A DNA stretch of 64,000 bases, from the NCBI GenBank assembly GCA_000002435.2, contig CM018793.1; one strand, 5' to 3'. Source of the stretch: Giardia intestinalis. Its lineage: Eukaryota. Each line of letters begins with the position of its first letter. Positions within the stretch are counted from its first letter, which is position 1. The notes beneath the pieces are model-generated. The model had not been told where the DNA came from and ran no database searches. It was given only the letters and a program-made list of their open reading frames with translations. Position numbers and translations under genes: made by a program. Shown in pieces: positions 1 to 33,195 of the stretch.

Positions 1-1490
1 TTGTCGCCAGTGCCGTCGCCCATCACGAAGCACATGAACGCACCGGTGGATGACACCGTGCACTGCCTGCACCCAGCGAGCCCCTCAGAGCACGGATTAC
101 ACTTTGTCCCAGCACTCTGCGGTTTGTAATATCCAGTGCTGCATGTAGCACAGGCGTTAGCGTCGTTAGCAGCCGTGCATGTCTCGCAGCTAAGATGGCA
201 CCTTTTATTGGAACAATCGCCATTATCAGCCGTTAGACCACTGGCACATTTTGTACATTTTCCTCCCTGCACTGTAGTACACACTTGCTTGCCAGGCTGT
301 CTATCTGTCTGATAGCAACCGCCATCTTTGAAGAAGTAGTTATTTTCACATTGAGTGCATGCTCCATTACTCACCGTAGTGCAAAATCGTGTTCGCGTAT
401 TGGCCGCACAGTTGCCATCCAGTGGTGCCTGTTGAGTGTTCTTGCACTTTGAGCAGTATGCAGTTCCTCCTATCTGAGCCCCACACTCTGCGCATCCATC
501 GTTTGTAGAACTCACGCTGCACTGGTTCATGCACGTGCCCCCATTGGCAGGAGTATCAGCATCTGTATACTGAAGCATCCTCCCAGCAGGACAAGCCGTA
601 CACTTATCAGCGCCCTCACCCTTGCACTCTACGCACGCATCGTTGCACTTCTTGCACTTTCTGTCAGTGTCATTTCCGTAGTAGCCCTTGAGGGTCGTGC
701 AGTCAGATACGCATTGACTGGTTGGGGTGAGGTAGTACTCAGACAGACACTTTGTACAGACCTCCTTATCGGCACCTTCACTGGTGCACTCCAAACAGTG
801 CTCTGTGTTACAGTTACTGATTGGTTGGCATTCAGTCGATTCAGTATTAGGTTGGAGTCCTTCGTTGCACTCGCACACTTGGCTATCCTGTCCGGTGGCC
901 TTGGGGGTAGAGTTAGCAGGGCAACTAGCAACGCACGACTTTCTGTTGAGACCAAAGATGGTCTTCGTATCAGTCGTACACGTCTTACAAACCACTCCGT
1001 TGGCGCCTTTCTCACAAGTGGTGCAGTCAGTTGTTCCAGCCGACACACATGTATTGCACTCCTTTGCTTCTTCATCAACGTAGTGGGTTGCCGGACAACC
1101 AGCTGTGTCAACGCACGTGCCGGTTGTGGACTCGCCATCCTTCTTCAGGTACTTCTTGGTCCCAGACGTTTTACACAGGCTGCACTTCTGTTGCTCCTTG
1201 GCCACGCACACAGCGCAATTATCATCTGCACACGCGGTGCACTTCTTCTCGGTAGCGTCGATGAAGAAGCCCTCCTCATTAGTACACGCCTCTGCGCTAA
1301 CACAGCTGGGTGCATCGCCAGCTTTAAAGTAGAATCCATCAACACACTCCCCACATATATTGTCCACCACACAGCTCTTGCAATCACCCACAGAGCATGT
1401 CACACACCCACTACCACCCTTGTTGGGCTTCTTACCACTGTCACAGGCAGTACACACAGCGACAGTCATACCAGCTGTTGTTAGAGCTGT
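1..1490 (-). repeat. constant 3' block of long-class units, copy in U0 (truncated by the window edge)
   Basis: Identical secondary ORFs recur at fixed offsets in all six copies (23..223, 629..1138, 714..1484). Encodes ...CVTCSVGDCKSCVVDNICGECVDGFYFKAGDAPSC...CFVMGDGTGDNTGGSVNKSGLSTG-TM-CRGKA. Confidence 0.85.
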
Positions 1491-2921
1491 CGGGGCTGTG
1501 CACTGAGAGCAGCCATCTACTCCCACGTATGCCTTAGCGGTACCTTGAGGATCTACTAGTGTGCCAAGGGAGTTGCCACATGCCAATACAGACTGCTGAG
1601 CATTGGATGCCCCTGGTACCAGGAAGTACTTATTATTCTCATTAACAGCGGTACAGACACCGTTGGCTGCTGTCTTGCACATGGACTTACCCGGCTGAGT
1701 TGACACACTATAGCAGCCTCCCATGTACAAGAAGTATCCTGTAGTACATGATGTACATGTATGATTGTTACAGTTATTCCCCTCTTTCTTTTCATTCCCA
1801 ACACATAGTCCATTAATGGGGAACTCACTGTCCTTTCCACAGTATGAACAGTAGTGATGCTCCTTCCCTGTGTTGTCGATCACTATTGCATCGCAGGCTC
1901 CAGAAGTACCACCACAAGCCGTGGGGTCTTCACAAGTCTTCTCACACGTGACCGCTCCTCCAGCCCCTACCTTCTTTTGGTAGTTCACCTTACAAGAGTC
2001 ACAAGTAAACGAGCCAGAGAGGGTGCACGTTGCACAGCCGGGCACTCCATCTGTCGGATCGTCGCATGGGACGCACTTCTTGGCCCCGTCATTCTTTAAG
2101 AAAAACCCTGGCTTGCACTTTTCACAGGTATCTATAGCGCCTCCTGGCCCGCACTTTCCGCAATCGCCAGCGCACGCAACGCATACGGCGGGGTTACCGT
2201 TCCCGCTGTCGTAGTAGCCATCGAGGCACGTCTTGCATTCTGGCTTAGCGCCGTTCTTGCTGCAGGTCCCGCAACCGGGGCTTCCCTTGTTATTATCTGT
2301 CTTGCTGCTATCGTTGCTACATAGTATGCATTCGGCATCTCCGTCGCTCAAGAAGTTCTCACCAGTTGCTCCGCTTTGAGTGCAGGTGCCGGCGTCTATA
2401 CACGTAGTCGTCCCGTCGGCCTCTTCCTTGACTATCTTAGCTCCATTACATGCCGTGCACTTTGGGCCCCCAGTTGCCGGGTTGTACTCACACGTGGTGC
2501 AATCAGTTATTGCAGACGCCTTGCAGGTCATTGTCACAGGGTCAGCATAAGTGTTTCCAGTGCATCCATCACTATTCACGCATGCATTATCCTTCAGGAA
2601 CGTATTTCCCTTACAAGAGGTACACTGGGTCTCTGTAGTCTCACAGGTCAGACAGGACTGATCACACTTCTCACATGTCTGAGCGTTCTTATAGTATCCA
2701 TCTCTGCAGGTATCACACGTGGCCGCTCCTGGACTACCACTTGGTGCCGTACATGTGGCGCAGTTAGCCACCCCTGTATATCCATCTGCCCCATTGACAT
2801 CATGACAGAGGATGCACTCGCTACCCTTCTCTGGTGTTGCAGCCGGGTTCTTGAACAGGCCGTTATCTGCCTTACAAGCAGTGCACAGTCCTCCCTCAGC
2901 CTTTGTGCATATCTCACTCCA
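1..2921 (-). CDS. VSP-family cysteine-rich surface protein, long class, unit U0. Partial: the C-terminal TM/CRGKA end lies off-window. Headless (no ATG, no signal peptide).
   Basis: 1..2921 is colinear with and near-identical to U3 6955..9876 (same secondary ORFs 23..223=6978..7178, 629..1138=7584..8093). The minus frame (codon low ends = 0 mod 3) runs from the window edge to W codon 2921..2919, preceded by in-frame TAG 2924..2922. Body starts WSEICTKAEGGLCTACK. Absent from the ORF track only because GAG replaces the GTG the tracker used as a start elsewhere. Confidence 0.8.
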
Positions 2922-2973
2922 CTATCATACTATCACCCTCTATCACACCATTGTACAGCATTCACTACCCAAG
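2922..2973 (-). repeat. inter-unit spacer U0/U1 (52 bp): U1 poly(A) signal, degenerate CTATCAC heptamers (GTGATAG on coding strand), then in-frame TAG before the U0 body
   Basis: Plus actatcatactatcaccctctatcacaccattgtacagcattcactacccaag. Coding strand ...AATGGTGTGATAGAGGGTGATAGTATGATAGTGGAGTGAG. Confidence 0.85.
2960..2966 (-). terminator. polyadenylation signal AGTGAAT of U1 (Giardia-type AGTRAAY), within ACTTGGGTAGTGAAT overlapping the stop TGA
   Basis: Plus attcact 2960..2966. On the coding strand TGACTTGGGTAGTGAAT begins with the stop codon at 2976..2974. Matches the ACTYAGRTAGTRAAY motif known after VSP stops, with one mismatch. Confidence 0.75.
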
Positions 2974-32047: not shown

Positions 32048-32523
32048 GCAACTGTTAGTGCACTGGGGCTTACTGACAGTCGCATTGTACTTGCATGCCG
32101 TGCAATCAGTTATTGTACTACATGCCATGCACGTTCCAGACTCTGGATCAGCATACTTATCATTACCACAGCTATCAGTACATTGATTCCCATTGAGGTA
32201 CTTCCCCTCTGGACACGATGTGCACTGGGTCGCCGATGTCTCACAGGTGGCACAGTTCCCCTCGCATGGCTTACAAAGCTTGTTGTTTAGGAAGTACCCC
32301 TCTTGACAGGTATTACACGTGGCAGGTCCTGCATTCCCTGGTGCCGTACACTTGAGACAGTGGCCACTCCCGTATATCCATTCGCTCCCTTGATATCAGA
32401 GCACAAGATGCACTCCCCACCAGGAGTCACCTTGTCTGCCCTGTTCTGGAATATGTACTTGTTATCTGTCTTACAAGCAGTGCACAGTCCATTACTGGCC
32501 TTTGTACATATCACACTCCACAT
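30430..32523 (-). pseudogene. VSP-family unit U13. Chimeric: long-class constant 3' block fused to a U6-like 5' module across an internal deletion, plus a 1-bp deletion and a 3-bp in-frame deletion in the TM region.
   Basis: Tracker ORF 30430..32085 (551 aa) ends ...[12 protein letters not shown], lacking the conserved Cys (ccaccacaagaagccc versus ccaccagcagaggaagccc). Junction ~32046..32052: left of it the sequence matches U3 ~8410..8440, right of it U6 ~16148 onward. T lost at ~32358 (gagacagtggcc versus gagacagttggcc). The 5' edge has an in-frame ATG 32523..32521 (MWSVICTKASNGLCTACK). TAG 32529..32527. Confidence 0.75.
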
Positions 32524-32579
32524 CACCTATCACCCTCTATTACCCATTATCACACATTGTATAGCATTCACTACCCAAG
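32524..32579 (-). repeat. inter-unit spacer U13/U14 (56 bp). Same GATAG to GATG variant, creating an in-frame ATG for U13.
   Basis: Plus cacctatcaccctctattacccattatcacacattgtatagcattcactacccaag. TAG at 32529..32527. Confidence 0.8.
32566..32572 (-). terminator. polyadenylation signal AGTGAAT of U14
   Basis: Plus attcact 32566..32572. Stop 32582..32580. Confidence 0.75.
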
Positions 32580-33195
32580 TCACGCCTTCCCCCTGCACAC
32601 GAACCACCAGCAGAGGAAGCCCACGAGGCCCCCCACGACGACGACCACAGCGACGGAGATCCCCGCGACGGCCCCCGTGGAGAGCCCGCTCCTGTTGGTG
32701 CCAGAGGACACACACATGCCATCCCTCGGGACATAGCCCTCCTCGCACTCCCCGCAGACGCCCTCTGCGCTGCACCGCATGCACCTCTCTATGTCACAGA
32801 CAATGCACTGGGTGCCGTCCAGGCTGGGTCTCTGGTCTTTATTGGTACATGCCTCACACTTGTTGTCTGCGCTGCAGTGAGAGCAGCCCTGGGCCGGACA
32901 CACATAGCAGGTGCTTCCAGCCATGTTGGGCTTCTATTGTCCTCAGCACACACCTCGCACATCCCGTCGATGGCGCAGCTCTTGCACCCGCCGACCGCAC
33001 ACAGGGTGCACCCGCTGCCATCCTTGTTGGGCTTCTTCGTCTTGTCGCACGCACTACAGACCGCCGCGGCCATCGCATTGGCGGCTGGCGCTGCGGGGCC
33101 GCGCACGCCGTGCAGTCTAGCACGCCGACGTACGCTTGTCGCCCGCGGTCGCTCCCACAGGGTTGCCACAGGCAAGCACGGACTGCTGAGGCAGC
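32580..33195 (-). pseudogene. VSP-family unit U14. Partial, abuts the assembly gap. GC-rich lineage. Apparent frameshift.
   Basis: Tracker ORF 32580..32924 (frame 0) ends ...[38 protein letters not shown]. The upstream VSP-like sequence AVCSACDKTKKPNKDGSGCTLCAVGGCKSCAIDGMCEVC is in frame 2 (ORF 32789..33175), so there is a shift near 32925..32945. Sequence stops at the N run, 33196. Confidence 0.65.

Follow-up and report, generated by a model that had tools for sequence, protein, structure and literature searches.

More than half of the vsp genes of Giardia lamblia WB, which encode variant-specific surface proteins (VSPs), occur in 'linear arrays' with a mean intergenic distance of 60 bp, and no downstream member of these arrays has an initiator, some being without any ATG (Adam et al. 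2010, BMC Genomics 11:424, PMC2996952). The same study showed recombination among vsp genes and stated the hypothesis that the WB arrays act as a reservoir of donor cassettes. Published spacing in linear arrays is typically ~60 bp and ranges from overlapping to 241 bp, and the first member often carries a full 5' end with an upstream non-coding region and an initiator. Assembly GL2.1 (Xu et al. 2020, Sci Data 7:38, PMC7000408) annotates them as arrays of pseudo-VSPs, and a donor role was proposed again for the arrays of G. muris (PMC7641422). A 2025 population study found gene-conversion tracts to be enriched at VSPs in assemblage AI. VSP switching in Giardia is itself credited to epigenetic, RNA interference (RNAi) or microRNA (miRNA) control. 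Here we analysed a stretch of 64,000 nucleotides from Giardia intestinalis (GenBank assembly GCA_000002435.2, contig CM018793.1), hereafter called the window, which carries a tandem array of VSP-family units without 5' ends. In our estimate, the probability that this array counts among the pseudo-VSP linear arrays of strain WB (assemblage AI) is about 85%.

Compared with the WB linear arrays, nothing essential differs in the window. Both come from the same strain and show head-to-tail orientation and ~60-bp spacers; in both, downstream members have neither initiator nor proper start codon nor signal peptide and keep the 3' end with the extended poly(A) signal; both lie at contig ends or gaps, and recombination among members has been reported. 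Four features that characterise a linear array were found: at least two units in the same orientation, a spacing of 49-72 bp, no initiator, start or signal peptide, and matches to WB. The window holds 15 units as against 10 in the longest array of 2010, and its mosaic structure and single shared junction can be described here in detail. The pseudo-VSP arrays of G. muris (Xu et al. 2020, Microb Genom 6:mgen000402, PMC7641422) are, like the window, tandem (5-23 copies) and without signal peptides; they are transcriptionally silent and show phylogenetic signs of gene conversion with intact VSPs, but they belong to another species, have a GCRGK tail, are nearly all adjacent to telomeres and accompany few intact VSPs (26). 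The promoterless, truncated cassettes that characterise silent-cassette systems were also found in the window, which in this respect resembles the 5'-truncated mosaic copies arrayed in Trypanosoma brucei (VSG), Borrelia (vlsE/vls), Anaplasma (msp2), Neisseria (pilS) and Pneumocystis (MSG). In those systems, however, a dedicated expression site and conversion during switching have been demonstrated, and neither is known for Giardia.

Sequence proper occupies only positions 1..33195; the remainder is one run of N, and the WB PacBio assembly is reported to contain four internal gaps represented as N runs sized by optical map (PMC7000408). GC skew was negative throughout the sequence, and the long Cys-rich reading frames were all on the minus strand. 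Motif searches of the window returned 14 matches to C-R-G-K-A-stop and 14 to the body start TGGAGTG[AT]GATATG[CT]ACA. Together the two sets delimit 15 head-to-tail VSP units with 14 boundaries on the minus strand, named U01 to U15 from high to low coordinates. The 5' end of U01 is interrupted by the N run and the 3' end of U15 lies beyond the window edge, leaving 14 visible 3' ends for 15 units. From U01 to U15 the spacers measured 59, 49, 70, 51, 51, 61, 51, 61, 61, 61, 63, 51, 72 and 52 bp. The original prediction of at least 15 VSP-family units was thus borne out, and its spacer range of 49-72 bp agreed exactly with the measured values. The features are as follows.

33196..64000, no strand: 30,805 N in one run, on the side of the array's upstream (5') end.
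32580..33195, minus strand: U01, VSP 3' fragment with four in-frame stops or frameshifts and CRGKA-TGA at its end.
32521..32579, minus strand: spacer U01/U02, 59 bp, with the poly(A) motif, GCTRTACAAT and then 3-7 (G)TGATAG-like repeats.
30430..32520, minus strand: U02, in-frame ATG at -3; a U09-like head (98-99%) joined directly to a long tail, with ~960 bp missing at the join.
28554..30380, minus strand: U03, short type with two frame changes.
26625..28483, minus strand: U04, 99% copy of U13/U14 with three small deletions (frameshifts) and an in-frame ATG at -3.
23502..26573, minus strand: U05, long, open frame of 1023 codons.
21600..23450, minus strand: U06, short, open frame of 616 codons.
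18487..21538, minus strand: U07, long, a patchwork of U09-, U13- and U10-like blocks with two frameshifts.
16681..18435, minus strand: U08, short, open frame of 584 codons.
14886..16619, minus strand: U09, short, open frame of 577 codons.
11753..14824, minus strand: U10, long, open frame of 1023 codons.
9940..11691, minus strand: U11, short, open frame of 583 codons.
6823..9876, minus strand: U12, long, open frame of 1017 codons; shares 98.6% identity with U15.
4909..6771, minus strand: U13, short, open frame of 620 codons; shares 99.3% identity with U14.
2974..4836, minus strand: U14, short, open frame of 620 codons.
1..2921, minus strand: U15, long, open for 973 codons, 3' end outside the window.
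30381-30429, 28484-28553, 26574-26624, 23451-23501, 21539-21599, 18436-18486 and 16620-16680, minus strand: the first seven of the other 13 spacers, built like spacer U01/U02.
14825-14885, 11692-11752, 9877-9939, 6772-6822, 4837-4908 and 2922-2973, minus strand: the last six spacers, of the same build.

The units matched the Pfam VSP family PF03302 with E-values from 1e-37 to 1e-84, and their closest protein relatives were Giardia duodenalis VSPs. Their cysteine content was 11.8-12.8%, in Cys-rich ectodomains with the many CXXC motifs characteristic of VSPs. As for the 3' ends, membrane anchor, CRGKA and stop codon were present at all 14 that are visible. The poly(A) motif ACTYAGRTAGTRAAY was matched 14 times, each match overlapping the TGA (five exact, nine with one mismatch, ACTTGGGTAGTGAAT), against a chance expectation of ~0.01. 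With these matches, the extended poly(A) signal of VSPs, ACTTAGRTAGTRAAY, which lies just past the stop or across it, is present at 14/14 visible ends; this signal is common to VSPs and pseudo-VSPs (Rodriguez-Walker et al. 2022). The earlier claim that every unit has the full 3' apparatus therefore stands for these 14 ends, and does not extend to U15, whose 3' end is outside the window.

On the 5' side of the units, all 14 junctions align to one design, in which CRGKA-TGA is followed by ACTT(A/G)GGTAGTGAAT, GCT(G/A)TACAAT, three to seven (G)TGATAG-like repeats, and the body start TGG AGT G(A/T)G ATA TG(C/T) ACA, read as W-S-(E/V)-I-C-T. The junctions differ only in repeat copy number, which accounts for spacer length; TGA, poly(A) motif and repeats are conserved, and the spacers are 56-63% A+T. 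A conserved in-frame stop had been predicted at every boundary, and TAG was indeed found immediately before TGG at 12 of the 14; the boundaries of U02 (32521-32523) and U04 (28484-28486), read on the minus strand, instead carry an in-frame ATG at -3, giving M-W-S-V-I-C-T. No hydrophobic stretch follows either of these ATGs, and both units are frameshifted. The remaining spacer ATGs reach a stop within 2-15 codons. Intact VSPs have '...GGCYKTSQWSEICT...' or 'GSEICTKAEGG' at residues ~100-107, where the units begin, and '...FLFMGGCYKTSQWSEICT...' or '...GPGSEICTKAEGG...' at residues ~95-110; therefore the units begin at about codon 102. Each unit is thus a VSP gene without its first ~100 codons, so that signal peptide, first Cys-rich module, initiator and promoter are all absent. 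What remains runs from W-S-E-I-C-T through the ectodomain and membrane anchor to CRGKA, the stop codon and the poly(A) signal of VSPs.

Further searches of the window agreed with the loss of the head. The initiator PyAATGTT, present in 135/136 intact WB VSPs (Rodriguez-Walker et al. 2022), had 0 matches on both strands of the whole window. A heuristic hydropathy scan of every open reading frame (ORF) opened by ATG on both strands, in all frames, found no VSP-like hydrophobic leader among the Cys-rich ones, one accidental case in U02 excepted. This is a 551-codon ATG ORF (32085..30430, minus strand) starting MRLSVSPSALTVAALTTVGMAAAVC, in which a frameshift and the deletion junction fuse a moderately hydrophobic N-terminus to a long VSP tail; it is an accident of that junction. 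It was the sole ORF of the window that a signal-peptide predictor might accept, and it is without PyAATGTT and absent from the protein collection. A hidden head elsewhere in the window was rejected, because tblastn with N-terminal 100-residue segments returned only low-identity Cys-rich module repeats inside the bodies. We also looked for a spliced leader or intron that could supply an ATG and leader. The acceptor CTRACMCACAG gave two one-mismatch matches, both within unit bodies and none at the boundaries (~2.8 are expected by chance), and such a rescue was rejected. An Rfam scan of the window had no matches, and a bacterial promoter and terminator scan was disregarded as meaningless for a eukaryote. 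Because they are without an ATG plus signal peptide, the units as they stand are predicted not to be expressible as type-I surface VSPs. The boundary alignment, the hydropathy scan and the missing initiator thus upheld the original prediction both on the absence of ATG plus leader and on the block to expression.

That all 14 boundaries have one junction suggests, at the level of sequence, a single truncated founder per array which was amplified in tandem. This fits the first of two readings proposed earlier, namely that the repeat boundary lies inside the ORF. Under the linear-array interpretation, a 3' VSP flank, ~50 bp past the stop, would have been joined to codon ~102 of a VSP, giving one 5'-truncated unit. 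Tandem duplication or unequal crossing-over could then have amplified the founder, leaving 14 identical junctions, and the bodies would later have been overwritten patchwise by segmental gene conversion or unequal exchange, mechanisms that we infer from the pattern shown by the bodies. Conserved VSP-family stretches may have acted as homology anchors for the exchange. The units would be silent or at most weakly transcribed copies, and together may make up a reserve of in-frame VSP sequence that is linked by recombination to the expressible repertoire.

Comparison of the bodies showed all units to be patchworks, built of blocks of 100-1500 bp that are 98-100% identical to blocks of different other units. 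For example, U07 is closest to U02 and U09 at positions 101-400 (99%), to U04, U13 and U14 at positions 401-1300 (98%), and to U10 at positions 1301-3052 (100%), and U08 consists of blocks resembling U10, U12/U15 and U11. A tail block of ~1.46 kb (e.g. 11860-13320 in U10) is identical in U02, U05, U07, U10, U12 and U15, spread over 30 kb; the only changes are the loss of 1 nt in U07 and a single C>T in U15. The identity of these six copies suggests that conversion or duplication took place very recently; alternatively, consensus polishing may have homogenised the repeats. Private differences among U04, U13 and U14 are few and clustered, as expected of short conversion tracts.

Identical copies of this kind also raise the question whether the array, or its uniform headlessness, arose from misassembled repeats. 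Besides the six copies of the 1.46 kb block, the array adjoins an unresolved gap, the frameshifts fall at homopolymers, and later work considered a part of the WB chromosome 5 scaffold to be wrongly assembled. However, ORFs of the independent 2007 Sanger assembly are 100% identical to U09, U11 and U15, their starts at internal methionines included, and it was from the 2007 assembly that this organisation, including 60-bp spacers and the missing initiator, had been described. An assembly artefact is accordingly very improbable.

We examined the state of the reading frames in the 15 units. The body was uninterrupted in 10 of them, with open frames of 577-1023 codons, and frameshifts or stops were present in U01, U02, U03, U04 and U07. 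Those of U02, U04 and U07 map to ~32362 (the 1-nt deletion of U02), 28460, 28431, 28292 and 19101 (GGGG>GGG, one of the two frameshifts of U07); each removes 1-2 nt, for the most part within a short homopolymer (AA>A, CC>C, GGGG>GGG). Between divergent intact units, the synonymous divergence (dS) was 0.8-2.3 and the ratio of nonsynonymous to synonymous divergence (dN/dS) 0.16-0.41, or around 0.3, and 97-100% of the cysteines were kept. Near-identical pairs gave a dN/dS of 0.5-0.63, nearer neutral. None of the 142 sites at which U08 and U12 differ gives a stop, where 4.2% of random substitutions would make one, and all indels between intact units were multiples of three. Since dN/dS is low, cysteines are kept, no stop occurs at these 142 sites and indels stay in frame, the diversity of the units cannot stem from neutral drift inside a never-translated array; it came from, or is common to, translated genes, or else it was selected through use as donor.

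These frames bear on the possibility that the array is a pure graveyard, a by-product of unequal crossing-over which only receives sequence or decays, with no consequence for the organism. The frameshifts and stops in U01-U04 and U07, the near-neutral ratios of the near-identical pairs and the lack of promoter, initiator and leader all agree with it, as does the one exchange with an intact gene whose direction can be read, which points from intact gene to array (see below). On the other hand, conversion between homologous partners can usually run both ways, some 200 pseudogenes of this kind are still present in a genome that is very compact (PMC7000408), and similar arrays exist in G. muris (PMC7641422); both facts speak for a role that is at least tolerated and possibly useful. 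We consider the graveyard a serious candidate whose chances fall a little short of even.

The units were then compared with gene models of strain WB. Four 2007 RefSeq "VSP" models of WB ATCC 50803 begin at internal methionines: XP_001705783 is 100% identical to U11 over 499 aa from an internal Met, XP_001703933 is 100% identical to U09 over 446 aa from an internal Met, XP_001705785 is 100% identical to U15 over 843 aa, and XP_001705784 matches U04 at 99.5%. The window accordingly derives from G. lamblia WB or from a source that cannot be told apart from it, and these four models are revealed as array pseudogenes. Exact look-ups of the ATG ORFs of the window in the protein collection found none of them, which is consistent with annotation of the units as pseudogenes. 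Further WB models of 2007 (P0005, P0011, P0015, P0028 and P0136) begin MLYSDSDS(DS)AMWCGGDS..., which is translated spacer; the start corresponds to an ATG that lies within the poly(A)-signal region and precedes GATAGT repeats. The models of this kind (MLYSDSDS...LFMGGCY) show that other WB arrays have a different breakpoint, LFMGGCY, about 17 codons further upstream. Array-type sequences have also been deposited as VSPs, e.g. VSP S7 (AAN52102, P0021), which starts at an internal Met and in which a U06 head is followed by 260 aa that match U10 exactly and then by a short tail. A reading of VSP S7 as a new expressed mosaic was found to be unsupported, its 90% cluster including the WB model XP_001705627 from the other array type ('MLYSDSDS...').

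Expression in some other form would yield truncated proteins from internal ATGs, or RNAs that either supply the RNAi and miRNA machinery of VSP silencing or titrate it. The internal-Met ORFs that the 2007 annotation called from U04, U09, U11 and U15 are in line with it, and so are the conserved 3' end and poly(A) signal kept by the units and a median of 19 FPKM (fragments per kilobase per million) for initiator-less 'VSPs', mostly array members, against 42 (PMC3610916). Multi-mapping of reads among 99-100% identical copies, however, inflates apparent expression; a Cys-rich domain without signal peptide would remain cytosolic, the pseudo-VSPs of G. muris are essentially untranscribed (PMC7641422), and the window had no Rfam matches. 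We therefore regard such expression as improbable.

Exact runs of 50-180 aa were common to the units and the intact, signal-peptide-bearing WB VSPs P0036, P0029 and P0025, and also to P0066, a related WB protein that bears a signal peptide and carries the annotation high-cysteine membrane protein. Over its residues 361-540, the intact VSP XP_001707628.2 (P0036) is 97-100% identical to U03 and U06, and its tail is common to U04, U06, U13 and U14. P0066 and P0025 have exact runs of 125, 64 and 50 aa in common with U03 and U06. The degenerate U01 matches XP_001705078 (P0029), an intact VSP, over the C-terminal ~200 residues of that protein at 91-98%, across two reading frames. The tail type of U01 is unlike that of every other unit of the window, and XP_001705078 sits on the 4.0-Mb chromosome. 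The ~1.46 kb long-tail block had no close counterpart in any intact VSP of the protein database, its only close matches (>=79%) being the old internal-Met models. Recombinational exchange thus appears to be present both among the units and with intact VSP genes.

One of these cases, XP_001707628.2, could be polarised. Its block common to U03 and U06 is also found in the ortholog of assemblage AII (DH), and its tail differs from the DH ortholog and agrees with P15 relatives. The two orthologous intact VSPs, P0036 (WB) and P0138 (DH), are 86-100% identical up to residue ~600 and then ~55%. Because the block is present in the DH ortholog and the tail in P15 relatives, both parts are ancestral in the intact-gene lineage, and the array units are recipients or derivatives. 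Likewise, since P15 relatives carry the WB-type tail, the DH gene is the changed copy, and the replacement of its 3' end is an example of conversion at an intact VSP gene. Conversion from array to intact gene at the XP_001707628.2 tail was rejected, the P15 relatives having the WB-type tail. Among the comparisons with intact WB VSP proteins, no tract was found that necessarily moved from the array to an intact gene, and the single polarisable case points from intact gene to array, or to shared ancestry.

These results bear most directly on the second reading of the original prediction, a maintained archive of silent donor cassettes. In its selected form, the array would be kept because segmental gene conversion copies its cassettes to VSP genes that have an initiator, giving new expressible mosaic antigens over evolutionary time or within infections. 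The ten units open over 577-1023 codons with conserved cysteines, the long exact blocks common to units and intact VSPs, the extensive mosaicism and the enrichment of gene conversion at VSPs are all compatible with an archive, a hypothesis already in print. Yet in the XP_001707628.2 case the ancestral state of block and tail makes the array recipient or derivative. Recent import from functional genes equally explains open frames and low dN/dS, and the 1.46 kb long-tail block is in no intact VSP of the protein database. Upkeep is moreover not uniform, five of the 15 units being broken, which speaks against 'maintained'. Exchange is seen, and the sole polarised case points the opposite way or to shared ancestry. 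A donor role is possible but unproven, and we judge a selected archive to be unlikely. That Giardia makes new mosaic antigens by copying in-frame cassettes of such an archive, beside epigenetic and RNAi-based switching, seems to us a little more doubtful still.

Several points weigh against the interpretation of the window as a linear array built from one founder, decaying and in exchange with intact genes. Concerted evolution of the spacers could give the same shared junction. The 5'-most unit lies within the N run, which may hide a complete head gene. Consensus polishing of repeats could account for part of the six-copy identity of the ~1.46 kb block. Homopolymer-type indel errors have been reported for the PacBio WB assembly, and the frameshifts of U02, U04 and U07 could be uncorrected errors of this type; some broken units may then be intact, which weakens the case for decay. 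Finally, exchange with intact WB VSPs rests on protein comparisons only.

ORFs outside the VSP frame also recurred in the window. Plus-strand antisense ORFs of up to 368 codons occupy the same place in each long unit (e.g. 26010-27116 and 19008-20102), repeated plus-strand ORFs of 256 aa lie at 714-1484, 7669-8439, 12599-13369 and 31273-32043, and a 171-codon sense-strand ORF (RRMASPQPARALTQ...) recurs in an alternative frame. The recurring antisense and alternative-frame ORFs are most likely by-products of a repetitive, skewed codon composition.

The type of array described here is already known, and both earlier readings are published hypotheses for this feature. The donor archive, put forward as a notable new idea, was proposed for these arrays in this very strain by Adam et al. 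(2010, PMC2996952). What the present analysis adds is one shared junction, mosaic bodies, old divergence under constraint, present decay and contact with intact genes. On present evidence the window only presents anew what has been published on the reference genome, and its practical use is as a clean, long example for the study of conversion tracts. If units do donate to expressed VSPs, Giardia would join trypanosomes, Borrelia and Neisseria in renewing antigens from silent cassettes, and judgement of the vaccine coverage of the VSP repertoire would change.

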